From NCBI GenBank assembly GCA_964523015.1, contig CAZFXN010000011.1, positions 1 to 63,502 of the forward strand: 63,502 nt of DNA, in the 5' to 3' direction. A model generated the notes under the pieces. That model saw nothing but the letters and a program-made list of their open reading frames with translations. It did not search any database and was not told the DNA's origin. Position numbers and translations under genes: made by a program. The DNA is from an uncultured Bdellovibrionales bacterium (GTDB taxonomy: Bacteria; Bdellovibrionota_C; UBA2361; J135). Shown piece by piece: positions 6,319 to 25,186 of the stretch; positions within the stretch are counted from its first letter, which is position 1, and each line of letters opens with the position of its first letter.

Positions 6319-7956
6319 ATGAAGGCATCATTAAGAATGAAAATCCTAGCAGTGCCAATAATATTGTCACTAAGCTTGGCATTTAATGGTTGGTTAGGTG
6401 TAGGTGGGCTTGAAAAATTAAATTCTACTATGGATAAGATCCTTAATCATGATATGTATGCCGCTAAGATGAGTAGTGATGCTGGATTTAATTTAACTAA
6501 TTATTCCCGATATCTCTTAGCCTATATGGCTTCAAGCATTGAAGCCGATCAGCAATACGCAGAAAAAAAGCTTCATGAGTATGAAAATGAGACAATATCT
6601 ATCTTTAAAGAACTCTCAACATCAAAGGCTTTAGGTGCCTCTGAGAATAAAGTATTTGTAACTGCTCTCTCAGATTTTGAAGTAATTAAACACGAGTCAA
6701 ATGAGGTCTTAAGATTATCAACTGCTCATCAAGATGCAGAAGCAAAAAACTATTATACTAGTAATATGAGCGGAAAAATCGATAACCTTGCAACTATGTT
6801 AGAAGATTACGCAGATCAACAATCAGTCGTTGCCAATGAATCAGTTAAAGCTGGGACAGAGACTTATAACATTATCAAGATGGAAACAATCGGGATCGTT
6901 GCAGGCAACATACTTCTTGGATTATTTTTAACTTGGTGGATTACTCATGTTACAGTGAAGCCGATCTCTATGTCTTTAACTGAGATGGAACAGGGATCCG
7001 CTCAGGTAACTTCTGCTTCAAACCAGATTGCTGCTACTGGGCAAACTTTGGCTCAAGGATCTACTGAGCAGGCTGCTGCATTAGAAGAGACTTCTGCTAC
7101 ATTGCAAGAGATTATGACCTCTTCAAAGAGAAATACTGAGAATACTACAGTTGCTGAAGGATTGGCCACGGAGGTTGATGAAGCAGCTGATGAGGGCAAA
7201 ATTCTTATGGGCAGCCTTGTAAAAGCGATTGGGGATATCAACGCTAACTCAGCTCAGAGTGCTCAGATAGTAAAGGTAATTGAAGAGATCGCATTTCAAA
7301 CAAATCTTTTAGCTCTTAATGCCGCTGTAGAGGCCGCTAGAGCTGGAGATGCTGGAAAAGGATTCGCGGTTGTAGCTGAAGAGGTTAGAAACTTGGCTCA
7401 TCGCAGTGCTCAGGCAGCTAAGGAAACTGGAGATAGAATCAAGCAATCTGTTGATTTATCAACCAATGCGGTAACTGTGACAACAAATACTGCAAAATCT
7501 CTTGAAACAATTAAAGAGCGTGCTGATAAGACCGGTCAATTGATCCGTGAGATTGCCCAAGCAACTCGGGAGCAAACTGAAGGTATCACTCAGATCAACA
7601 TAGCTATGGATCAGTTAAACTCTGTAACTCAGAGTAACGCTGCTGCCGCAGAGGAATCTGCTGCCGCTAGTGAGGAGTTACTTGCACAGGCTCGTGCACT
7701 GACCGGAAGTGTTCAGGATGTTTCTGGTATAATTTACGGTGGTTCCAGTAGCTATGCTAGAGGATCAGTTACTCGCACAAGCAGCCCAGCAAGGAGAAAT
7801 TCCTCAAACGGACAAACCTACTCAGTGTCCTCCCGAAGAGTAACGAGACCTTCTGCTAAGTCACCAGCTCCATCAGCTAGACCATGTAGCTCAAATGATA
7901 GTTCAAAGGAGTTAATTCCACTTGATGAGAATGACTTAGCTGATTTTACACACTAA
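6319..7956 (+). CDS. Methyl-accepting chemotaxis protein (2 TM, four-helix-bundle sensor)
   Basis: [37 protein letters not shown] signalling hairpin. Confidence 0.96.
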
Positions 7957-12085: not shown

Positions 12086-12733
12086 ATGACTATAACAAAG
12101 ACTAATACCGCGATAAAAGCGTCTCTAGATTACAACACCTCCCAAATTGCAGGAGATGCACTTTATTTTGAGCTCAAAAAATTAAAAGATTCTTCAGTCA
12201 TACTCAGGCAGCAGGTTCGGAAACAAGCTGCAAATGATCTCTGGTCACTTAGAAAAAGGTTGATTAAACGATCGCAGGAATTAAGCGTTAGGGAGATAAA
12301 AAAGTGGGAGTTAAATAATCTAACCTCACTGCATCAAAAATATAAAGCAAGCCTAATGGCCTCAAGCAGTGATTGCCTTAATCTAGTAAAAAAAATAGCT
12401 CAAACAATTATTGGAGAACATTTTAATTTCGATAACACTTCTTTAGGAAAGAAGATCTCAGCAGCGATCAACAGATTGGCAAATTCAAAGAATATCTTAG
12501 TTTACGTTAACCCTAGTGATATCAAAGATCTATATAATAGATTATCAGAGCTTCATCCAGAAAATCATATAGATCTAAAAATATCTAAAGAGATCCCTTT
12601 AGGAGAGGCTCAAATTGTTTCTGCCTCTGGAAGTGTAGAGATCTCCTGGCAAAAGCACTTAGATATTCTCGTTGAAAGCCTCCAACATAAAGTTACTCTT
12701 TCTAAAGAAGGTGGATATGAACAACCTAGCTAG
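12086..12733 (+). CDS. FliH/SctL-like type III export ATPase regulator
   Basis: C-terminal VYVNPSD...IPLGEAQIVSASGSVE resembles FliH; overlaps fliI. Confidence 0.7.
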   Translation: MTITKTNTAIKASLDYNTSQIAGDALYFELKKLKDSSVILRQQVRKQAANDLWSLRKRLIKRSQELSVREIKKWELNNLTSLHQKYKASLMASSSDCLNLVKKIAQTIIGEHFNFDNTSLGKKISAAINRLANSKNILVYVNPSDIKDLYNRLSELHPENHIDLKISKEIPLGEAQIVSASGSVEISWQKHLDILVESLQHKVTLSKEGGYEQPS

Positions 12734-14063
12734 CCTGCTATCTCTTGATCTAACTGAGCCAAATTATATTACCTCAAAGGGGAGTATTGTTGGATCTAGA
12801 GGAAACACCCTTACAGCAAAACTACCCCACGCATCGTTAGGTGATCTTTGCTACATTTCAACTCATAGTGAAGAGGTTCCCGCTCAAGTTGTCGCCTTTA
12901 ATGAAGACGTTGTAACTCTAGCCCCACTAAGGGGATTTAATAGAATTGGAACTGGATCTCTTGTTACCTGTACAGGAGCACCACTTAAGGTAAGAGTTGT
13001 TGGAGACTTACTTGGTAAAGTTATTAACGCAATCGGTGAACCACTACTTAAAGGTGTCGATCAGCCGGATCAGTCATGCAAAAATTCAGATGCTCATTCA
13101 CTTAATATATATGCATCCCCACCTAATCCACTTAAAAGAGAGATCATTAAAAGGCAATTGATAACCGGAGTCTCGGTAATTGATACCCTATGTCCGATCG
13201 GTCATGGTCAAAGGTTGGGCCTTTTTGCTAGCGCAGGAGTAGGAAAATCTACCTTACTTGGAATGCTTTCACGAAATGCATCAGTTGATGTTGTAGTAAT
13301 AGGACTGATTGGAGAGAGAGGAAGAGAGGTAAAAGAATTTATTGAAAATAATCTTGGTGAAGATGGTTTAAAAAGAGCAGTTGTCGTTGTCTCAACAAGT
13401 GACGAACTACCGATAATGAGAACATTAGCAGCTTTCACTGCTACATCAATAGCGGAGCACTATAGAGATCAAGGGTGTTCTGTTTTACTTTTAGTTGATT
13501 CTATCACTAGAACTGCAAGAGCAATTAGAGATGTTGGCCTATCTGCGGGGGAGGTCCCTGTTAGACACGGCTATACCTCTTCAGTATACACTGAGTTGCC
13601 ACGTCTCCTTGAACGAGCAGGAACATCTGATAAAGGATCAATCACTGCCATCTATAACGTATTAACTGACAACGAAAGAGAGCTCGATCCTTTAGCTGAA
13701 GAGGTAAAAAGCATCCTTGATGGACATATTGTTTTAAGTAGGCAGCTTGCTGAAAGGGGTGTGCTCCCTGCCGTTGATATTACGTCATCTATCTCGAGAC
13801 TCCTGCCAAATTTACTAAATGATCAGTGGCAAAAAGAATGTCGACAAATAGTAAAGATTGCCGCCAAGATAAAAAAAGATAAGGATATAATTTTGCTAGG
13901 TGGAACGCCTGATGCTGAACTCAAAGCAGCACTTAGTGTCGAAGAGTTAATATATGAGCTGATTAATCAAGATCCAAATGTGACCAGAGGCATAGAGGAA
14001 AGCCGAATCAAGATGAAGGAGATCTTAAAGCGATACAACGAAGTTTTGTCAGTTGCTACTTAA
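12717..14063 (+). CDS. fliI: FliI/SctN type III export ATPase
   Basis: GQRLGLFASAGVGKST, LIGERGREVKEF, DSITR, ERAG, ILDGHIVLSR; ATG 12717 chosen as start. Confidence 0.92.
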   Translation: MNNLASLLSLDLTEPNYITSKGSIVGSRGNTLTAKLPHASLGDLCYISTHSEEVPAQVVAFNEDVVTLAPLRGFNRIGTGSLVTCTGAPLKVRVVGDLLGKVINAIGEPLLKGVDQPDQSCKNSDAHSLNIYASPPNPLKREIIKRQLITGVSVIDTLCPIGHGQRLGLFASAGVGKSTLLGMLSRNASVDVVVIGLIGERGREVKEFIENNLGEDGLKRAVVVVSTSDELPIMRTLAAFTATSIAEHYRDQGCSVLLLVDSITRTARAIRDVGLSAGEVPVRHGYTSSVYTELPRLLERAGTSDKGSITAIYNVLTDNERELDPLAEEVKSILDGHIVLSRQLAERGVLPAVDITSSISRLLPNLLNDQWQKECRQIVKIAAKIKKDKDIILLGGTPDAELKAALSVEELIYELINQDPNVTRGIEESRIKMKEILKRYNEVLSVAT

Positions 14064-15346: not shown

Positions 15347-15922
15347 TTAAAGTGCCTCTTCTATCGCCTTACGAATCTTGCTTGAAGTTGGAGAGGTCAT
15401 AGAAGAGAACCTAGCGACAACTTGGCCATTTTTATTGACCAATAATTTCACAAAATTCCAGCCTGGATCACCTCTAAATTTTTCCTCAGATTCAGTCGTA
15501 AGAAAGGAGTAAACCGGCTGCCTATTTTCACCTTTTACAATACCTTTAGAAAAAATTGGGAAAGTCGTCTTATACTTTAGTTCGCATAACTTTTTTATCT
15601 CTGAATTATCACCTGGCTCTTGCGAACCAAAGTCATTGCTAGGAAAAGCGAGTATTTCAAATCCACGATCTCTATACTCTTCATACAATTTTTGTAGCCC
15701 GGCGTATTGTGAAGTAAATCCGCACTCAGAGGCAGTGTTCACGACTAACGAAACTTTTCCTTTAAACTTTTCAAGGCTTACCTTTTCTCCATTTACGTTT
15801 TCCACAGCCAAATCGTACAATCCATTTTTGTGCCCAATATCAGCTGCCATAACATTTATCTCTCCTAAATATAATAAGGTCAGTACTAATAAAAATAATT
15901 GCAATACTCTAAGATTATTCAT
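15347..15922 (-). CDS. Glutathione peroxidase family protein (Cys-type, with signal peptide)
   Basis: VNTASECGFTSQY, LAFPSNDFGSQEPG, WNFVK. Confidence 0.95.
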   Translation of the reverse strand: MNNLRVLQLFLLVLTLLYLGEINVMAADIGHKNGLYDLAVENVNGEKVSLEKFKGKVSLVVNTASECGFTSQYAGLQKLYEEYRDRGFEILAFPSNDFGSQEPGDNSEIKKLCELKYKTTFPIFSKGIVKGENRQPVYSFLTTESEEKFRGDPGWNFVKLLVNKNGQVVARFSSMTSPTSSKIRKAIEEAL

Positions 15923-15936
15923 AATGATTAATCTAA

Positions 15937-17043
15937 TTACTCAGACTTATTTGACGGATTCGTGTAAACTATCTGAAAAACATGGACCATCTTTTTTCTA
16001 AAAAATGCTCTGCAGCCAGAGAGATAAAACTTCCACATTCTTTGAAAATGAATGTCGTATTTTTCTGAAATTCGTGGCCAGGCCTTCTCAATATTATCAC
16101 TCCAAGCTTTGAGAGTCTTTTCATAATCAGCTCCAAGATTCTCTACATTTTCAACGATGAGATTGCCTATTTTAGAGTCAAAAAGCTCCTTATGTTTGGG
16201 TATATATCCATTCGGAAAGATATATTTAGTTAACCAAACTAAAAACTGATCAATTGCAGGATTAGAAGTTAAGGAGAAATTGTCAGTTGAAATAACTTGT
16301 AGCAGAAACTTCCCCTGCCCTTTTAAGCAGCGTTCAATCATTTGAAAAAATGCTGGGATATTTTTTCTGCCTACAGCTTCAATCATTTCAATTGAAACAA
16401 TTTTATCAAAATAACCTGAGTAGGTTTTATAATCTTGCAGTAATATCTCTACCGGTAATCCCTTACAACGATCACTTGCAAACTTGGCTTGCTCTGTTGA
16501 CACAGTAAGTCCAACAACTGAAACGCCATAGTGTCGAGTTGCATATTCTGCAAAATTACCCCATCCACAGCCAACATCTAGAACTCTTTGTCCAGGCCTT
16601 AGCTCTAATTTGTTACATATAATTTGTAGCTTCGCCTGCTGGGCTTGTGCAAGATCTTGGGCATCCCGCCAATAACCACTAGTATAACTCATACTAGGAT
16701 CAAGCATTTCTGTAAAAAGATCATTTCCAAGATTATAATGTTTGAGTGCTACTTCAAAAGCACGATCTCCCTTTTGTAGATTAATTATCAATTCATAAAA
16801 CAACCGTCCTATAGTTTGAAAGTGAAGTTTACTGGGCAGTAAATCTGGCTGCCCAAGGATTTGAAACAAAAAATCATCAAGATTATCGCAATCAAATGCG
16901 CCGCTTATATAAGCTTCACCCAAACCAAAAATCCCTTCGCGCTTGAGCAATGAACGGAGTGAGGGTTCTAGTGAAAGACCAAGATCTGTAGAGCAAAGAG
17001 ATTCATTTATACTTCCTTGTACAGTAGTATTCATAAAAATCAT
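15937..17043 (-). CDS. cfa: Cyclopropane-fatty-acyl-phospholipid synthase family SAM methyltransferase (UfaM-like)
   Basis: HYNLGNDLF, LDVGCGWG, SIEMIEAVG, KYIFPNG, RMWKFYL. Confidence 0.93.
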   Translation of the reverse strand: MIFMNTTVQGSINESLCSTDLGLSLEPSLRSLLKREGIFGLGEAYISGAFDCDNLDDFLFQILGQPDLLPSKLHFQTIGRLFYELIINLQKGDRAFEVALKHYNLGNDLFTEMLDPSMSYTSGYWRDAQDLAQAQQAKLQIICNKLELRPGQRVLDVGCGWGNFAEYATRHYGVSVVGLTVSTEQAKFASDRCKGLPVEILLQDYKTYSGYFDKIVSIEMIEAVGRKNIPAFFQMIERCLKGQGKFLLQVISTDNFSLTSNPAIDQFLVWLTKYIFPNGYIPKHKELFDSKIGNLIVENVENLGADYEKTLKAWSDNIEKAWPRISEKYDIHFQRMWKFYLSGCRAFFRKKMVHVFQIVYTNPSNKSE

Positions 17044-17927
17044 CTCCTCCTTTCAGTAAATACAATATCTTCTTTATCGCCTTGCCTTATCTCATCTGCC
17101 ACTTTAAATCGAGTCAACATAGAGAGTACTTTAAGCCTTAGGGAATGAATGATGTTTTGCCTGGATCTCAATGTATTAATACTTGATGGCACAGGTTTTT
17201 TTTTCGGAACAATTTGATGTTTAAAGTAGAGTATCATCGCCTGATAATGAATTTTTATCATTGTAGTTACTGCTGTTAAGGGAAATTTCAATAAAGTGCG
17301 AATAAGATTTTTTGTTGTAAATTCTTGATAACGTCCTCGTAGACTACTATTAAAAACTTCTCTATTAGATTTCAAAAGAGTAATATCGATCTGTAATTTA
17401 GGGGAGAGACTCTGCAAAGTGCATCTGTATTCACCGGACACATCAAAGAATGGGGACACAAAAAAACTTTTGGGGAAACTAAAGCTGATTGGTAAATTTT
17501 TATTATTAAATCCTGCTTGCATAACATAGCTGTGTTTCTCTCCAAAGGTATTATTGACTTCGGCAACTATAGAATGAAGCGTTTCATCTTTGTTGAAAGA
17601 GATAAAGAAGCTAGCTGGATTAAAAACATATCCCAAGAATCTTGGCACCGTTAGTAAGAAGCTTTTTGTATCTACATACGTTATATTTTCATTTGCCAAT
17701 ACTGAATGTAATTTTTCTAGTATAGGCTTAGCTCCACACATCAAATAGTCAGAATCAAAGATACTAAAAACTCCGTATTTATTATGCTTTAAAAGAGGGG
17801 ATTTAATTTGCTCAGAAGCTAATGCTTGTAAATCTAGTTGTAACATAAAAAGAGGGTAAGAGAAGTTGTGAACTTTTCTTTCGTTTCTCCGGTGGTGCAC
17901 TGCTCCCCAAAATACTTTTGTGTTCAT
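17040..17927 (-). CDS. DUF1365 family protein (UfaO-like)
   Basis: HHRR..HNFSY, PRFLGYVFNPASF, AEVNNTFGEKHSY, KSFFVSPF, IHYQA. Confidence 0.9.
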   Translation of the reverse strand: MNTKVFWGAVHHRRNERKVHNFSYPLFMLQLDLQALASEQIKSPLLKHNKYGVFSIFDSDYLMCGAKPILEKLHSVLANENITYVDTKSFLLTVPRFLGYVFNPASFFISFNKDETLHSIVAEVNNTFGEKHSYVMQAGFNNKNLPISFSFPKSFFVSPFFDVSGEYRCTLQSLSPKLQIDITLLKSNREVFNSSLRGRYQEFTTKNLIRTLLKFPLTAVTTMIKIHYQAMILYFKHQIVPKKKPVPSSINTLRSRQNIIHSLRLKVLSMLTRFKVADEIRQGDKEDIVFTERRR

Positions 17928-19201
17928 AGTGAGGTTCCAAGTTTATGCGCTACGCTTAAGGCCGAGCTAACACCATCTTCATGAAATCCATATCCAAGAT
18001 GAGCTCCGCAATAAAATGTATTGCGCTGGCCATTTCTATCTTTGAGTTCTTGCTGTGTCATAACTGAATCTACTGTGTAAATGGGATGTTTATATTCAGT
18101 CTGATAGATTGTTAGTGACGGATCTATCTTTTGATCAGTATTGAGTGTAACAAAATAATCTCTCTTTGTTCTTAAAGATTGCAACTTATTCATATAATAA
18201 GTAATAGAAATGTTTGATTTAATTGGTCCTCTATTTCTTAATCGATAATTCCATGATGCCCAGTGCTTACGTTTTGTAGAAAGAACTGCGGGATCACAAT
18301 GTAGTGTTGTTAAGTTCCTGCTGTATCGCCAGGTAGCAAGTAATCGCCGTTCCTCCGGATCTGGATCGGCCAAAAGAGCTAATGCTTCATCGGCATGAGT
18401 TGCGATAACAACGTATCTAAAATGCTCAACCGACCTATCATCAAAATGAATAGCAATACTATCATTAGCACGTTCAATTCTAGATATTCTACTTTGGGTT
18501 TTGATTCTACCCTTGAAAACTTTCTTGAAAGCTTCAATGTATTTGTGACTACCACCACTAATTGTTTGCCACTGTGGGATTCTGTTTAACTCGAGCATCC
18601 CATGATTTTTAAAAAAAATAGCAAAAGTTGTAGCTGGAAAATCACTGAACTCTACATCTGGACTTGACCAAATTGAGGCAACAAGAGGTTGGAGATAGTT
18701 TATTATAAAGTACTTGCTCACTTTAAGTTTTGAAAGATACTCTCCCATTGTTATTTGGCCAACTTTGTTATCTCTAAGATCGGCCAGAACTTGTTTATTA
18801 AATCGATACCTATCCAACAACATTCTGCAAAATTGAGGTCGTAAAAAATTACCAGGAACTCTTACAAACTCGCTCAATTTTGGGCCTACATAGTTGAGCC
18901 CTGTCTCTTCACAATAAAACCCGAATGACATATCTGAGTTTTGTAAATCTACACCCAGACGATTGAGAAAAGTATAAAAATTTGGATAATTTTGGGCGTT
19001 ACAAACTATAAAGCCAGTATCTATGGCCACACCTTCATCAACAGGCCCTTCAATAATTCTGGTATTAGTATGACCACCAATTGATTCATTACTCTCGAAA
19101 AGAGTCACTGTATATTTTTTATCAAGCAAGAAAGCAGCAGTAATACCGGCTATGCCCGCACCAATTACTGCGATTTTGCTTGCTTCATTTGCAATCGCCA
19201 T
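17924..19201 (-). CDS. FAD-dependent oxidoreductase, amine-oxidase-like (UfaD-like desaturase)
   Basis: IGAGIAG, GGHTNT, DTGFIV, WASWNY, GYGFHEDG. Confidence 0.9.
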   Translation of the reverse strand: MAIANEASKIAVIGAGIAGITAAFLLDKKYTVTLFESNESIGGHTNTRIIEGPVDEGVAIDTGFIVCNAQNYPNFYTFLNRLGVDLQNSDMSFGFYCEETGLNYVGPKLSEFVRVPGNFLRPQFCRMLLDRYRFNKQVLADLRDNKVGQITMGEYLSKLKVSKYFIINYLQPLVASIWSSPDVEFSDFPATTFAIFFKNHGMLELNRIPQWQTISGGSHKYIEAFKKVFKGRIKTQSRISRIERANDSIAIHFDDRSVEHFRYVVIATHADEALALLADPDPEERRLLATWRYSRNLTTLHCDPAVLSTKRKHWASWNYRLRNRGPIKSNISITYYMNKLQSLRTKRDYFVTLNTDQKIDPSLTIYQTEYKHPIYTVDSVMTQQELKDRNGQRNTFYCGAHLGYGFHEDGVSSALSVAHKLGTSL

Positions 19202-19965
19202 AGGTAAAAAACTATTTTCTCATAAATAAAATATGGCAGAATTCTAGTCAGCTTTAGGAACCAATTAAATGGTATCGGAAAACTAATTTCTTTTTTATGT
19301 CTTTGTATTCCATTACATATAATCTCTGCGGCCTTTGATGAGTCTATTAAAAAAGGCATAGGGAAATCGTTTTTATCAGTAAGAGGCGTTTTAACAAACC
19401 CAGGGCAAACTATTGAAACAAAAATATTAAATTCACTAAGATGAAATCGTATACTTTCAAGAAAATGTATAAGTGCAGACTTACTTGCACCATAGGCAGC
19501 GGCCCGTGGCAAACCACGGTACCCAGATAGACTTGAAACTCCTACTATATAGCCAGATTTTCGCTTAATCATCTTTGAAAGAACCGCTTCAATAGTGCGA
19601 AGTGTCCCTCCAAAGTTAATTTCCATTAAATCTATATACTCTTTACTGTCAAAATTTTCAGGGATAGAAAATACATGAGTGCCTGCATTTGCAATTAAGA
19701 TATCAATATTACCTAGTTCATTTTCTATTCTTTCTACCGTATCTTTCAACTCATCAAGGTTCAAGACATCAGCCTTAGCGGGAAAGGCGACTCCTCCAGC
19801 TTGAGTTATCTCTACTGAAATTTTCTCTAAAATATGTGCTCGGCGGGCACTTAGTGCCACCTTAGCTCCACGTTTTGCACATTCGAAAGCAAGTGCTTTT
19901 CCAATGCCGCTACTGGCACCAGTAATCCAGACAACCTTCCCAGAAATGTTATTAGTTGAGTCCAT
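19165..19965 (-). CDS. SDR family NAD(P)-dependent oxidoreductase
   Basis: TGASSGIG, NAG, YGASK, PGFVKTPLT; start set at ATG 19965. Confidence 0.93.
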   Translation of the reverse strand: MDSTNNISGKVVWITGASSGIGKALAFECAKRGAKVALSARRAHILEKISVEITQAGGVAFPAKADVLNLDELKDTVERIENELGNIDILIANAGTHVFSIPENFDSKEYIDLMEINFGGTLRTIEAVLSKMIKRKSGYIVGVSSLSGYRGLPRAAAYGASKSALIHFLESIRFHLSEFNIFVSIVCPGFVKTPLTDKNDFPMPFLIDSSKAAEIICNGIQRHKKEISFPIPFNWFLKLTRILPYFIYEKIVFYLWRLQMKQAKSQ

Positions 19966-19992
19966 TTTGAAAATATAGCTCAAAGTTAAAAA

Positions 19993-20049
19993 ATGTTGAC
20001 TATTTCACTACATAGTTTATATTATGTTGTATAAATATTACATTGTCAA
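19993..20049. promoter_or_regulatory. Overlapping divergent sigma70 promoters with two candidate operator boxes
   Basis: Minus strand TTGACA(20049-20044)-N17-CATAAT(20026-20021); plus strand TTGACT(19996)-N16/18-TATATT/TATTAT; ATGTTG...TACAT boxes at 19993-20013 and 20024-20043. Confidence 0.65.
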
Positions 20050-20164
20050 GGTAAAGCACTTAATGGATCGTTATTTGGGTTCATAGATATATTTCGTGCG
20101 GTGCTATTATGTACTCACTTTTATTCTCAGATCGACGAAAGGAATTATAATTAAGTAAGAATAA

Positions 20165-21049
20165 ATGAGTCAGGAGAATCTTACCCAAGCAGAGATACTT
20201 ACCTCAAGGATATCAAAGGAATATCTGGCAGCAATTTTAATTTCTGATACTGCTTCCGCATCGAAAATTATTTTTGCTGGATTAGCTCAAGGTATCTCTA
20301 TTTTCGACATCTATATAAAGGTTATTTGCCAAGCTCAAAAAATGCTTGGAGTTCTTTGGCTAAAAAGTCAGATTTCCATAACCCAAGAACATCTAGCCAC
20401 TCAGGTATCGACTGCTATTATCTCTACACTCAGACAACAAGTTACTCCTAAAGCCCCACTTGGCTTTAAGGTATTGGTAGCAACCCCAAATTCTGAACCT
20501 CATATTTTTCCAGCCCAAGTAGTTTCTGATTTTTTTTATTTTGATGGGTGGGAGATTTTCTTCCCTGGTAACAACATTCCTGAACAGGATTTAGTTGAGT
20601 TTGTTAAACAGAACAAAATAGACATTGTATGTCTTTCTGTTTCAATAAAGCCAGGGAATAAATTTCAATCCTTTTTAGCAAATCTTAAAAAATTATCTCC
20701 AAAACCCAAAATCATGCTTGGAGGTGCGGCATCTGAACTATTCAGTGCTGATAAACATATTGATGCAATTGTAAGCTCCATAGATGAAGCAACAAAAGTT
20801 GCCCGATCTCTTTTAGGAAAGGAGGCTCAAGAATCTTCTTTGAACCAATATTTAAAGTCCTTGGGAGAAAGAATATATATTAAAAGAAAATCTAGGTCAC
20901 TGAATCAGCAAAAGTTAGCGGAATTAGCTGGCCTTGATCGTGCCTACTTAAGCTCAGTAGAAAATGGAAAACAAAATATTAGCCTGGCAGCTGTAAACAG
21001 GATTGCTCAGGCTTTAGGTTTGACTATTGAGGAACTACTAGAGAAATAA
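20165..21049 (+). CDS. Cobalamin-binding (CarH/LitR-type) protein with C-terminal XRE helix-turn-helix
   Basis: W-x9-EH (WLKSQISITQEH), ExH (SEPHIFP), B12 Rossmann fold (GNNIP, CLSVS, MLGG); C-terminal LNQQKLAELAGLDRAYLSSVENGKQNISL. Confidence 0.88.
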   Translation: MSQENLTQAEILTSRISKEYLAAILISDTASASKIIFAGLAQGISIFDIYIKVICQAQKMLGVLWLKSQISITQEHLATQVSTAIISTLRQQVTPKAPLGFKVLVATPNSEPHIFPAQVVSDFFYFDGWEIFFPGNNIPEQDLVEFVKQNKIDIVCLSVSIKPGNKFQSFLANLKKLSPKPKIMLGGAASELFSADKHIDAIVSSIDEATKVARSLLGKEAQESSLNQYLKSLGERIYIKRKSRSLNQQKLAELAGLDRAYLSSVENGKQNISLAAVNRIAQALGLTIEELLEK

Positions 21050-21499: not shown

Positions 21500-24400
21500 T
21501 CACTTTACTGTAAATAATTTCTTATCTTTATTTAAGTAAAGGCTCTGCATCTCAGTTAGATTAAGTGGTCTTGATCCAATTCTGCCAAACACACTTACCT
21601 GATGTCCTGTCTCATCAACTGCTCTATCTCGATCTAATCCTTTTGAAATTGCTAGTGCCGGACCGTGAGTATGTTTTAAAGCAATTAGTTTTGGTTTTAC
21701 CTCTGGAGAGAATCCGTAATAGGTTGGAACTCTTTCTGGATCAGTTAATTGTAAAATCTTAAAACCATTTATCCCGTCAGCTAGATATGCAAAGAGACTG
21801 GCGTTAGTGGTGGCAACCTTAACATCTGAAAGATCATTAATTGTCCCATCATCATTATATTTCATATATAACTTTGGCTTATCTGCCTTTTCAATATCAA
21901 TTATAACTAGTCCCTCTTTACCACCAGAAACATAGGCATAAGTTCGGGCTAAGTAGATATTTCGAGCATCACTGAGTGAGACAAGAGATCCTTTCACTTT
22001 AATTGGTTTATCTATGTCAGTAATATCAACTGAATGAAATCCATCTTTGTCAGTGACAAAAAGATACCGAAACTGAATTCGACTTGCAGTTGGATTATTA
22101 AACGGGATTTCGGCTCTTACTTTTGGAGAAAGTGGATTATCTAAATCAAGGATTACAATAGACTCAGGGGTTGAAACAAAGGCATTTGTTCCACCTAACT
22201 CAATATGAGTCGCTCCATTTAAAATTCCATCCTCATTCCAGGTTAATGCCCTCTTTAAAAAATTATTCCGTGGTTCAAAGTCGGCTAGAGTATCAACGTT
22301 CACTAAGATTAATCCCTCAACGCTATCAACGATTACAGCATAGTGATAAATTGGATGCATCTTAGTTTCTAAATTCTCTGGCAACTGATCTCTAAAAGGA
22401 GCAATCGGCATGGTTGTAGGGAGAGCAAAAGATGTCGCGTTTTTAGATGACACATGGGTATCCTGCCCAAGCGGTGAAACAGGGGAAGTAACAATTCTCT
22501 CTGAAAATCCTTTGTTAGCGATATTAGCTACATCATAAACTCTAAAACCAGCAGTCCCTGCAGTTGTGTAAAGATATTCACCTCGAAGCTGGATCGTATT
22601 TGTCACTCCTCCCGCACCGTGATGAGGATGACTTGTAGTGAGCTCTAATTTTTTATCTTGGTGAGCTTTAAAGAAATCAGGATAAGCATACCTATGTAGA
22701 TAACTTCCAATAACAGCTTGTGGCTCATCCCATTCTGTTACCTGGACTGCTTCAAGACCAGAATCTCCTGTGGCGACATAAGCATGGTATCCGATAAAGT
22801 TTACAAAATTTGTTCCAAAGAGTTGAAGTTGAGCCATGATTGCATTGTTGTCATTCTTTTTAGAAACGTGGCAATCGGCACACTGCTTTGTTTCAGTTGT
22901 GCGAACTGTGTGTGGAAAATGCGGAGCAAAGGCTTGAGAGCTGTGACCAGATGCCGCAGTTGGAGGCTGCTGTACGTAAATTTTTTGACGATTAATATCT
23001 GTAGAGCTTAAAACTAAAGCACTAGATGATCTAATCGGAACGATTTTTCCGTCCTTAGCTGGACCATGCCGTCCAATTTGAAACATATCATCTCTAGCTA
23101 CTTGTGGATTATAGCTAGCCCAGTTCCTAGTTTCTTTGCCATCATAATGCTTTGATTTTTGCTTCCAGTTAGCTTCTATTGGTAGATGGCATCCAGCGCA
23201 ACTTGTGACCCAGGAGCTATGACAGGTAAAACAAGCTACCTTTGTATCATCATGGGCTAATAATGATTTTCCGCTCTCGGTATTTAAAACATTTGAGACT
23301 GAAGCGTAGCCCGGTTTTGTATCTGATGGCCCAAGAGTTTTTACCAATTTAGCTTTGGCAGCTTTTTCATTATACCAGGGGCTTTTTGCATCTACGATAT
23401 CTCTGACCTGTTTAACCTTCCACTCTTTATCTTTATAAAGGTTCGATCTCTGTATAAGAGTGCTGCCATGCCATTCAAATCTAGGTTTTCCAAAAGGAGT
23501 GCGGGCTAAGGTAAGATCATTTCCCCCATCAGGAGATGCAGGACCACTTGTTAAAAGAGTAGATCTCTCTTTAACCGTACCGTGACAATCCTCACAGGTA
23601 ATTTCTACAGACTGAGCAACTTCCCCGTATATATGACCATCACCATGATTATCCTGGCCAAAGTGACAATCAACACTATGCATCCCCTTATCTAGATGAA
23701 TATCAGAGAGATGAACTGCTTTTTTAAATTTCTGTGGATCGGTGTCAGTGACTTTGGTGCCCTTTTTATCAAGGAGATTCCCCTTTCGATCTCTTTTAAA
23801 GATCGCTCTGAAATTCCAACCATGTCCATGGTAATCAGCAAACTGTGTATTATCTAACTTTGGATTAAGCTCACTAACTTTTTTTAGAAATTCAATATCA
23901 GTCCAATTTCCTCGGCTGGCCGCATCCTCTGGGTTATGACTAAGAGACTGAAATCTCTCCTCTGCTGTTGGGTATTTCTGTTTTTCTGGCCACATATGTG
24001 GAGCATCACTCTCGTAATCCCACATGGTGTAACCTAAATAGGTATTAACAAACATATTTGGCTGATGCATATGACAGATCATGCATTGGCTGGTTGGAAT
24101 GGCTCGAGTAAAAACATGACTTATCGGATGACCCTCTTCATCTTTTGGAATGGTAGGATCTTTAGTTTGTGTTTTTCCTTCGTGTCCAAATTTGGCATAG
24201 GGGCCAGAATGTCTCTCGTCCCGATCGTTGCCATAAATTACATGACATGAGGTGCAGCCACTATTTCTATAATCCCCTGGATGATCGTTGGTTCCCATTA
24301 AGGAAAGATGTGGATCATTAAGTCTGGTTTTATGAATATTAAGCACTGGCACAGAACTTCTAGATCCTGTTCCTGGGCCACGATTTGACTGCCTTACATC

Positions 24401-25186
24401 TGGTCGCCCTGCCTCCTCAAGTGGATTTGGATTTCCGATCTCAGGAAATTGAGATTTGATGAATAGACCGCCACGCTCAAATATTCTAAAATTATCTCCT
24501 GGTGATAGCGTTTCCCACTGCGGTAATGGCACAAGCTTATTAAGGGCGCCGCGACCTTTAACTCGATCATTGATTGACTCATCTATTACAGCTTGAGGTA
24601 TTCCATCCCGAGTATAACTCTCTCCAAGGATATAATTTTTGTACGGTAAGATATTATTATTATAAGAGGCTCCACCAAAGAACATTGCTGAAGTAGTCAT
24701 TAAACTTCTCTTTACCGCTACTACTGTTTCAGCATGACAACCACCACACGTCTCTGGAGCGACTCTAAGATCTCCAGGATTCATAAATTTAACAAATTCG
24801 GGTGATTCCTTTAGCAAATTGGAATAGGAGCGTTTTGGATTAGCTGATGTGGGCCAATTCTCAGGATGTCGGGGCGAAACGTGGGCTAGTTTTTTTGTAT
24901 GATTATATTCCGGTCCATGTAGTGTTGTATTATTAGGTAATCTTACTTTTGGATCGCCTCCATGACAGTGGGCACACCCTATTTGAACTGCTGGATTTGT
25001 ATGCATCGATGGGGCGTCAGTTTTAGTATGACAATCAAAACAGCCAATACTTCCCTCTTTTACTTCCTCTTCTGTAAGCCCTGGTTTTATTGGATCAATT
25101 AGCGGATCCGCTGACGCAGAAATGGCTGCGACAAAAAGAGTAAACAGGGAAATATTTAGCAATCTTAAAATCATCCTTAAAATCAT
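21500..25186 (-). CDS. Secreted multiheme cytochrome c with C-terminal LVIVD-repeat propeller
   Basis: Signal peptide; 9 CxxCH plus one SxxCH; repeats YVATGDSGLEAV, YLYTTAGTAGFRVYDV, YAYVSGGKEGLVIIDI, AYLADGINGFKILQL. Confidence 0.88.
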   Translation of the reverse strand: MILRMILRLLNISLFTLFVAAISASADPLIDPIKPGLTEEEVKEGSIGCFDCHTKTDAPSMHTNPAVQIGCAHCHGGDPKVRLPNNTTLHGPEYNHTKKLAHVSPRHPENWPTSANPKRSYSNLLKESPEFVKFMNPGDLRVAPETCGGCHAETVVAVKRSLMTTSAMFFGGASYNNNILPYKNYILGESYTRDGIPQAVIDESINDRVKGRGALNKLVPLPQWETLSPGDNFRIFERGGLFIKSQFPEIGNPNPLEEAGRPDVRQSNRGPGTGSRSSVPVLNIHKTRLNDPHLSLMGTNDHPGDYRNSGCTSCHVIYGNDRDERHSGPYAKFGHEGKTQTKDPTIPKDEEGHPISHVFTRAIPTSQCMICHMHQPNMFVNTYLGYTMWDYESDAPHMWPEKQKYPTAEERFQSLSHNPEDAASRGNWTDIEFLKKVSELNPKLDNTQFADYHGHGWNFRAIFKRDRKGNLLDKKGTKVTDTDPQKFKKAVHLSDIHLDKGMHSVDCHFGQDNHGDGHIYGEVAQSVEITCEDCHGTVKERSTLLTSGPASPDGGNDLTLARTPFGKPRFEWHGSTLIQRSNLYKDKEWKVKQVRDIVDAKSPWYNEKAAKAKLVKTLGPSDTKPGYASVSNVLNTESGKSLLAHDDTKVACFTCHSSWVTSCAGCHLPIEANWKQKSKHYDGKETRNWASYNPQVARDDMFQIGRHGPAKDGKIVPIRSSSALVLSSTDINRQKIYVQQPPTAASGHSSQAFAPHFPHTVRTTETKQCADCHVSKKNDNNAIMAQLQLFGTNFVNFIGYHAYVATGDSGLEAVQVTEWDEPQAVIGSYLHRYAYPDFFKAHQDKKLELTTSHPHHGAGGVTNTIQLRGEYLYTTAGTAGFRVYDVANIANKGFSERIVTSPVSPLGQDTHVSSKNATSFALPTTMPIAPFRDQLPENLETKMHPIYHYAVIVDSVEGLILVNVDTLADFEPRNNFLKRALTWNEDGILNGATHIELGGTNAFVSTPESIVILDLDNPLSPKVRAEIPFNNPTASRIQFRYLFVTDKDGFHSVDITDIDKPIKVKGSLVSLSDARNIYLARTYAYVSGGKEGLVIIDIEKADKPKLYMKYNDDGTINDLSDVKVATTNASLFAYLADGINGFKILQLTDPERVPTYYGFSPEVKPKLIALKHTHGPALAISKGLDRDRAVDETGHQVSVFGRIGSRPLNLTEMQSLYLNKDKKLFTVK

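Follow-up and report, generated by a model that had tools for sequence, protein, structure and literature searches.

Among B12 photoreceptors only CarH, to our knowledge, is understood all the way from the light signal to the DNA, and as an optogenetic part for green light it has found wide use. In CarH and the class I LitR proteins (Thermus thermophilus, Myxococcus xanthus, Bacillus megaterium) an N-terminal MerR winged helix precedes a helical bundle with a Wx9EH motif and a Rossmann domain with the His-on B12 motif, and the operators are tandem direct repeats. The photocobilins, of Saccharothrix syringae (8j2w/8j2x) and Acidimicrobiaceae (8j2y), end instead in a bilin-binding globin-like domain, in some with a diguanylate cyclase, and CtMerR (8jbs) again has an N-terminal MerR domain; binding of adenosylcobalamin (AdoCbl) and a response to green light have been shown for the photocobilins and for the CtMerR module (PMC11796333). 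Here we describe a 294-residue regulator that combines a B12 module of this kind with a C-terminal XRE-type helix-turn-helix (HTH), and whose gene diverges from a five-gene operon resembling the genes for furan fatty acid synthesis (ufa). It lies in a 63,502-nucleotide (nt) stretch of DNA, called the window below in its whole length, from an uncultured Bdellovibrionales bacterium (GCA_964523015.1, contig CAZFXN010000011.1, positions 1-63,502, forward strand; GTDB lineage Bacteria; Bdellovibrionota_C; UBA2361; J135; genome completeness 93.5%). The domain architecture, the conserved residues, the fold, the ufa gene order and the neighbours in two phyla are best read together as a B12 light sensor set over photo-oxidative defence. 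That the protein is a B12-binding HTH regulator is almost certain. It probably senses light, and control of the divergent operon is likely to the same degree; we are somewhat less confident that it represses in the dark, and we lean only slightly towards the full proposal that the AdoCbl-loaded dark-state form is the repressor and is released by light. The regulator and its parts are as follows.

20165..21049, plus strand: regulator gene, 294 residues (Pfam, NCBIfam, AlphaFold2, Foldseek)
Residues 18-89, nt 20216-20431, plus strand: B12-binding_2 domain, four-helix bundle (Pfam)
Residues 102-203, nt 20468-20773, plus strand: B12-binding domain, Rossmann type (Pfam)
Residues 219-243, plus strand: long linker helix
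Residues 238-291, nt 20876-21037, plus strand: HTH_3 domain, XRE-type (Pfam)

All three Pfam domains score above their gathering cut-offs, B12-binding_2 with E 7.3e-8, B12-binding with E 3.1e-11 and HTH_3 with E 2.3e-12 (47.2 bits against a cut-off of 23), while no MerR-type family reaches E<=0.01 in the regulator. This bears out the initial annotation, which had read the protein as lacking an N-terminal MerR domain and carrying an XRE HTH at its C-terminus. The NCBIfam equivalog model of CarH (NF052513) gives only 49 bits against a cut-off of 400, and the match is confined to profile positions 82-256, which take in the sensor and leave out the DNA-binding MerR part. The photosensor signature and the ExH cobalt-ligand motif that had also been noted are both present in the translation. 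The upper motif reads G62-V-L-W65, x9, E75-H76, as in CarH and class I LitR proteins; Wx9EH defines CarH sensors and has been called "crucial for CarH photoreceptor activity" (PMC9304148). The lower motif reads E111-P-H113-I-F-P116. Against the published CarH B12 motif, D/ExHx2G/Px41SxT/Vx22-27GG (PMC9304148), the regulator has E111-x-H113-x2-P116-x41-S158-x-S160-x25-G186-G187, and its only departure is S160 for T/V; Ser also occupies this position in 27 of the 107 relatives aligned (107 of 166 family proteins, after removal of fragments, near-duplicates, two degenerate sequences and some entries from the end of the list). We considered and rejected the idea that Pro116 breaks the motif: the published form permits G or P, and the E-W-H-A-L-P of a proven photocobilin aligns with E-P-H-I-F-P of the regulator, so that Pro116, in a His-x-x-Pro that both share, is compatible with AdoCbl binding.

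The residues expected to hold the cofactor are strongly conserved in the alignment, W65 in 100 of the 107 proteins, E75 in 102, H76 in 98 and H113 in 104, and 92 proteins have all four. Among the 16 proteins of a first alignment two (P0010 and P0014) lack Trp, EH and lower His alike, and such joint loss of the upper and lower motifs is expected if these residues serve one cofactor. Two positions tell against a light sensor of the known kind. The signature of light-responsive cobalamin-binding domains given by SignatureFinder consists of GxxW, EH, GxxH and GxxxP (PMC11796333). Three of these four elements match (G62xxW65, E75H76 and G135xxxP139), but GxxH reads S110-E-P-H113, with S110 where 88 of the 107 relatives have the G. 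Similarly, the residue after the Trp is L66, whereas T. thermophilus CarH (TtCarH) and 41 of the 107 relatives have His. This His forms a bis-His adduct in light-exposed TtCarH, and it is found in "many" CarH proteins, not in all (PMC9304148).

The AlphaFold2 model of the regulator, made from a 107-row alignment, has a pLDDT of 95.5 and a pTM of 0.87. In a Foldseek search with this model, the matches listed above rank 23 are all B12 photoreceptor modules, namely those of the photocobilins 8j2w/8j2x/8j2y, of CtMerR 8jbs (TM-score 0.83, root-mean-square deviation 2.4 A) and of TtCarH; the CarH structures 5c8d and 8c31 also match by fold. The closest solved sequences are those of the photocobilins and CtMerR. 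In a profile search of PDB sequences they range from 1.7e-40 to 1e-34, with 8j2x/8j2w at 1.7e-40 and 8jbs at 4.4e-37. The S. syringae photocobilin also gives the best single-sequence alignment (4e-16), in which GVLW and QEH are identical. The alignment to 8j2x stops at residue 164 with the single sequence and at about residue 209 with the profile; where the photocobilins continue into the globin-like domain, the regulator has HTH_3, and where CtMerR has a MerR domain as DNA-binding partner the regulator has an XRE HTH. The sensor is closer to the photocobilin/CtMerR group than to CarH. In its proposed working the regulator is most like CarH, with the same one-component design beside photoprotection genes, but it is not a member of that group, as the MerR domain is absent and the domain order reversed.

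The HTH part of the model consists of five short helices, and its best matches in the profile search are the controller proteins C.AhdI (1y7y, 4.7e-20) and C.BclI (2b5a, 6.5e-19). The five-helix HTH_3 is common to C.AhdI, C.BclI, SinR and the regulator. The first three dimerise alone or through small C-terminal domains, whereas the HTH of the regulator is preceded by a 220-residue cofactor module. The XRE/Cro-C1 family typically binds palindromes as dimers. A prediction of a two-copy complex scored 0.13 against a mark of 0.42, which says nothing on self-association either way.

The architecture is not a chance fusion. A profile search of 1.84 billion representatives gave 150 listed best matches, mostly full-length (7e-114 to 1e-62), and the same three domains recur in every one of them. 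A further 2557 matches lie at or below 1e-30, a number that includes other B12 proteins. The family comprises at least 150 clusters at 50% identity, and the ESM Atlas holds seven clusters of at least 50 members with B12-binding_2, B12-binding and HTH_3, along with others that combine the B12 pair with a MerR, HTH_17 or HTH_5 domain. The architecture search that the initial annotation had proposed has therefore turned up a sizeable family. An impression that the family is very rare came from the 17 clusters of a word-based search only and was overturned by the exhaustive search, the phylum scan and the ESM Atlas. In species-representative genomes full-length copies (34 loci) are found in Bdellovibrionota or in SAR202/Dehalococcoidia, the latter being Chloroflexota with many carriers in SAR202. 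Within the phylum of the window the regulator is present in 54 of 124 genomes, in 34 of the 73 of high quality and in 20 of 64 genera. A quick tree of 72 copies splits the two phyla on one branch (SH-aLRT 86, not decisive) and places the window regulator with those of loci L001 and L097.

We found no paper that characterises a regulator combining a B12 domain with an XRE domain. A MerR domain is present in 35 of 37 proteobacterial B12-binding transcription factors, the other two not being described there (PMC3532121). The text of PMC11796333 (2024) states that HTH domains are found on either side of light-type cobalamin-binding domains, fused N-terminally or C-terminally, and its supplementary figure may already depict the architecture. 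The "distinct class" of the initial annotation therefore stands as a real and recurrent architecture, but it is not wholly unseen.

The operon consists of five close-packed genes that begin 181 bases from the regulator. All six open reading frames (ORFs) of the initial annotation are present, at the coordinates given here.

19165..19983, minus strand: short-chain dehydrogenase/reductase (SDR), first gene of the operon (adh_short)
17924..19201, minus strand: amine-oxidase-like oxidoreductase binding flavin or nicotinamide adenine dinucleotide (FAD/NAD), UfaD-like (Amino_oxidase)
17040..17927, minus strand: DUF1365 protein, UfaO-like (PF07103)
15937..17043, minus strand: CMAS-family S-adenosylmethionine methyltransferase, UfaM or Cfa type (CMAS)
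15347..15922, minus strand: glutathione peroxidase (GPx), Cys-type (GSHPx)

The sigma-E/ChrR pair drives ufa transcription in Rhodobacter sphaeroides, and RSP1087 (245 residues), in the ufa operon region of that species, presumably belongs to the SDR family. Work on the R. sphaeroides genes has used a chrR mutant and connects them with the singlet-oxygen response (PMC7380195). According to the same work UfaM methylates vaccenate, UfaD, an NAD/FAD-binding, phytoene-desaturase-like protein, desaturates the methylated product, and UfaO, which contains DUF1365, forms the furan ring with O2 (PMC7380195). The three families recur in the window, with Amino_oxidase at 6.8e-22 for the FAD enzyme, PF07103 at 3.3e-63 (213.9 bits) for the DUF1365 protein and CMAS at 6.4e-79; the SDR matches adh_short at 4.6e-51. 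As in R. sphaeroides (RSP1091, RSP1090, RSP2144) and Rhodopseudomonas palustris, an FAD/NAD enzyme, a DUF1365 protein and a CMAS methylase are encoded, and their order is that of the consecutive R. palustris genes RPA2571 (ufaD), RPA2570 (ufaO) and RPA2569 (ufaM) (PMC7380195). The window operon differs from the R. sphaeroides genes in having a B12-HTH protein upstream and a glutathione peroxidase appended; the latter (3.4e-39), with a hydrophobic signal-like N-terminus, starts 14 nt past the end of the CMAS gene. The genome's only CMAS match above cut-off and the only DUF1365 gene found in it are both in this operon. From the same three families in the same order, and from this uniqueness, our best guess is that the operon encodes a furan fatty acid pathway. 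The UfaD and UfaM assignments are tentative, as both families are broad and the comparison with the characterised enzymes is one of family and gene order.

The strongest of the alternatives concerns this product: the regulator may be as we describe it and the operon may make a cyclopropane, methyl-branched or other modified lipid, which we consider possible but rather doubtful. The CMAS gene reaches NF008686, the NCBI model of cyclopropane fatty acyl phospholipid synthase, with 411.6 bits against a cut-off of 400, so that UfaM and Cfa could not be told apart for this gene, and Amino_oxidase is a broad family. Moreover, RSP1087-1089 are reported to be dispensable for furan fatty acids in R. sphaeroides, so such clusters may have other products (PMC7380195). 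In favour of the furan pathway, the only role assigned to a DUF1365 protein to date is that of UfaO in forming the furan ring, the order equals that of R. palustris, and no other DUF1365 gene or CMAS match above cut-off was found in the genome. For the "furan-fatty-acid-like" label of the initial annotation, families and gene order speak in favour and the passing score of the cyclopropane synthase model against.

Other genomes of the genus have a version of the cluster unlike that of the window. None of three same-genus genomes (87-90% complete) has the regulator, and all three carry a DUF1365::CMAS cluster without it, both of which count against the proposed reading. In one of them (L147, 2179-10332) the genes are GPx, DUF1295, CMAS, FAD enzyme, a DUF1365::CMAS fusion of about 660 residues, a fatty acid desaturase and DUF2878; a divergent 266-residue ORF without Pfam match sits where a regulator might be. 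The DUF1365 protein of the window is 45% identical to that of L001 and 32-34% identical to those of the congeners, which suggests that the regulator and operon may have been exchanged as a block. The SDR shares 62% identity with its positional counterpart in L001. An ORF of about 150 codons follows CMAS in L001 (2969-3421) and in L132 (14426-14932). Its product resembles the C-terminal part of the SAR202 epimerase-DUF1731 protein and matches Polyketide_cyc2/SRPBCC weakly (0.003). In the window this gene is missing, and the next gene after CMAS is GPx.

Between the regulator and the operon lies a short control region with the following predicted elements.

19984..20164, no strand: divergent intergenic control region, possibly from 19966 if the SDR starts at an ATG seven codons inside the listed TTG ORF
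20049 down to 20021, minus strand: putative operon promoter, sigma-70-like, TTGACA-17 nt-CATAAT (consensus scan, 11/12 matches)
19996..20023, plus strand: putative regulator promoter, sigma-70-like, TTGACT-16 nt-TATATT (consensus scan, 10/12 matches)
20024..20043, no strand: candidate operator ATGTTGTATAAATATTACAT, a 20-bp imperfect palindrome with 7/10 pairs (inferred)

The two predicted promoters lie face to face; they come from consensus scanning alone, which finds 10 sites in the region where shuffled sequences give 6.3 +/- 2.8. The palindrome ATGTTGTATAAATATTACAT lies within the spacer and -10 of the operon promoter, and in the regulator promoter it falls where transcription should start. 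Being inside both core promoters, this candidate operator is placed as one would expect for an autoregulated repressor. A repeat search of the intergenic region returned two weak inverted pairs only and missed this imperfect palindrome. Counterparts are found in the same place in L001 (ATGTTGTATATGTCAAACAT) and in the SAR202 locus L006 (ATGTTGTATATATACAATAT), and a consensus of these three sites was scanned at up to five mismatches. In the first set of 34 loci it gave 16 matches, against 2-11 in ten Markov controls; ten of these matches, distributed over nine loci, fall in the 500 bp upstream of the regulator. The second set of 40 loci gave seven matches against 0-1 in controls, every one of them immediately upstream of the regulator and four in loci new to the analysis. 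The dyad TGTT-N10-AACA, chosen after seeing the data, occurs 25 times, 6 of them within 400 bp upstream of the regulator, a zone that makes up 3% of the sequence, and in that zone no TGTT/AACA dyad with spacings of 8, 9, 11 or 12 or with swapped arms was found. If the palindrome is the operator, it differs from the tandem direct repeats of CarH.

A number of results stand against this operator. The right arm of the window site is TACA, not AACA. An unbiased count of exact 4-mer dyads gave no dominant dyad, none being present in more than 6 of 31 loci. At up to three mismatches the consensus matches the window site and no other in the whole genome, a uniqueness that is partly circular as the consensus includes this site, and the 23 matches at up to five mismatches equal the 22-34 of Markov sequences. 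No operator-like site was found upstream of the genome's two photolyase genes. Furthermore, most SAR202 loci have a different conserved box. This box, ATACACAtaatTGTGTTATAATACAA, is found in L009, L013, L017 and L019-L021 upstream of the epimerase-DUF1731 gene (about 6400-6520) and has ACA/TGT half-sites about 10 bp apart in alternating orientation, unlike the window palindrome. The second-best consensus match in the window's own genome (contig C1, 33954-33973, four mismatches) is intergenic and about 70 nt upstream of an ORF start.

We suggest the following scheme. The cell would make AdoCbl through a PduO-type adenosyltransferase, and the regulator would bind it with H113 as lower ligand and with W65, E75 and H76 capping the adenosyl group, as residues and fold indicate. 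In the dark the loaded protein would oligomerise and pair its HTH domains on the roughly two-fold symmetric site at 20024-20043. So bound it would shut both its own gene and the operon, the site lying, to judge from the DNA sequence, inside both promoter cores. Light would break the Co-C bond, the oligomer would dissociate and both promoters would open. The operon enzymes, by homology and gene order, would then methylate, desaturate and oxygenate membrane acyl chains to furan fatty acids, and these together with the glutathione peroxidase, which is probably exported, would guard the envelope against photo-oxidation.

The logic could also be the reverse, with the photolysed or cofactor-free form binding DNA, or with the regulator acting as an activator. 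XRE-family proteins are able to activate, and C.AhdI and C.BclI, to which the best HTH matches belong, act as activators and as repressors. The HTH is also linked to the Rossmann end of the sensor, unlike that of CarH, so the logic of CarH may not transfer. Nevertheless, the candidate site is in the position of a repressor site, in the operon spacer and -10 and in the start region of the regulator, and the characterised AdoCbl transcription factors, as far as PMC9304148 and PMC8221060 describe them, are all dark-state repressors. We therefore regard reversed logic as unlikely.

Slightly less plausible still is that the regulator senses the supply of cobalamin and not light, its neighbours being under nutritional control. 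The pair of B12 domains is common to corrinoid proteins and MetH. In the profile search CarH itself (5c8a, 2.4e-25) is level with the non-photoreceptor corrinoid proteins 1y80 (2e-25) and 7xcn (4.7e-25), and in the Foldseek search the methylamine corrinoid protein 3ezx ranks next after the photoreceptors with an equal TM-score (0.84), so that fold alone cannot separate light sensors from methyl carriers. Against a supply sensor, the adenosyl-capping Wx9EH is kept across the family, and the best solved relatives, at 1e-40 to 1e-35, are light-responsive. The neighbours, moreover, are photoprotective (ufa-like genes, photolyase, peroxidases) and do not concern B12 uptake or B12-dependent enzymes. 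The Rfam models found no family in the whole window, hence no cobalamin riboswitch in the long leader. These points leave a supply sensor improbable and the B12 light sensor as our preferred reading. The genome encodes a PduO-type cobalamin adenosyltransferase, and no CobA-type enzyme was found in it. Its only other B12-binding_2 match is a 1158-residue MetH-like ORF, which indicates that it has no classical MerR-type CarH. Eight sequencing runs contain at least half of the words of the stretch and are labelled microbial mat metagenome; one may be the source, and no RNA run is listed among them. An origin in a microbial mat suits a light-exposed life and proves nothing.

The neighbourhoods of the relatives link the family to light damage, but less uniformly to membrane lipids. 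Ufa-like genes (CMAS, FAD enzyme and mostly DUF1365) lie within 8 kb of the regulator in 17 of the 34 genome-contig loci, and about ten of the remaining 17 are truncated on at least one side. Every ufa-like cluster found is either divergent from or co-directional with the regulator unit, and so has a control region or a transcription unit in common with it. The divergent, SDR-first arrangement is common to the window, L001 and L132, a co-directional downstream cluster is present in L011, L012 and L018, and in SAR202 the cluster is divergent from the epimerase-DUF1731 gene that abuts the regulator. A photolyase is near the regulator in 6 of 74 loci. Among the 40 loci of the window's phylum only four have ufa-like genes near the regulator, two of these being the same contigs as L001 and L012; at the other 36 the surrounding DNA as fetched shows no ufa-like gene, several of these contigs breaking off only a few kb from the regulator, which indicates that membrane defence is not the general target of the family. 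The family is tied to light-damage genes in several lineages, and the furan-lipid link holds for some clades only. The control of membrane photo-oxidation defence proposed in the initial annotation is consequently supported by ufa-like clusters and photolyase in two phyla and limited by these 36 loci.

As improbable as a supply sensor, in our view, is that the adjacency is incidental, the regulator controlling itself or distant genes and the operon being controlled separately: the 36 loci, the congeners that run a ufa-like cluster without the regulator and the largest genus, which keeps a DnaJ-domain divergent partner, would fit it, but the pairing recurs in two phyla and several gene orders, the window promoters overlap so that one site serves both, and the SDR-first pairing is kept in L001 and, with GPx at its end, in L132.

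This DnaJ-domain protein, of about 343 residues, is the divergent partner in 25 of the 74 loci, all in family f18 of the phylum (L099-L129). Its N-terminal DnaJ domain (7e-8) is its only Pfam match, for example in L107 (6770-7801), and two conserved boxes lie in the upstream region common to its gene and the regulator. In L001 a 147-residue hydrophobic ORF without Pfam match (7513-7956, plus strand) lies between the shared promoter/operator and the regulator gene, and the L001 regulator may be co-transcribed with this small membrane protein; the window has a 140-nt leader in its place. Flagellin and FliD genes adjoin the regulator of L001, and the window encodes a FliI/type III secretion-type ATPase (12672-14063, plus strand; ATP-synt_ab, 4e-78), so both organisms are likely flagellated. 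Another ORF of the window (21500-25186, minus strand, 1228 residues) has many CxxCH haem-binding motifs and a signal-like N-terminus. Its weak Pfam matches are to cytochrome c3/c7 and, close to the C-terminus, to an LVIVD repeat, and the product appears to be a large multihaem cytochrome that is exported and carries a propeller-like region as a fusion.

We speculate that the regulator represents a second, independently built class of B12 photoreceptor transcription factor. In this class a photocobilin/CarH-type AdoCbl module would control a light-reversible assembly that pairs C-terminal XRE domains on a palindrome, the class would be common in Bdellovibrionota and marine SAR202, and photoprotection in these bacteria, through furan lipids and photolyase, would depend on their supply of coenzyme B12. 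We hold this proposal in even balance. If it is true, there is a second class with a geometry and a DNA code unlike those of CarH, and the family would test whether light-controlled assembly is a portable switch; it would also offer a compact new optogenetic part with a separate operator. The DnaJ-domain protein of f18 would then be an unknown light-regulated target. Furan fatty acid synthesis, studied so far in the singlet-oxygen response of R. sphaeroides, would be tied to direct light sensing, and two groups for which no B12-dependent light response is known, the predatory Bdellovibrionota and the SAR202 bacteria that abound in the sea, would gain one.

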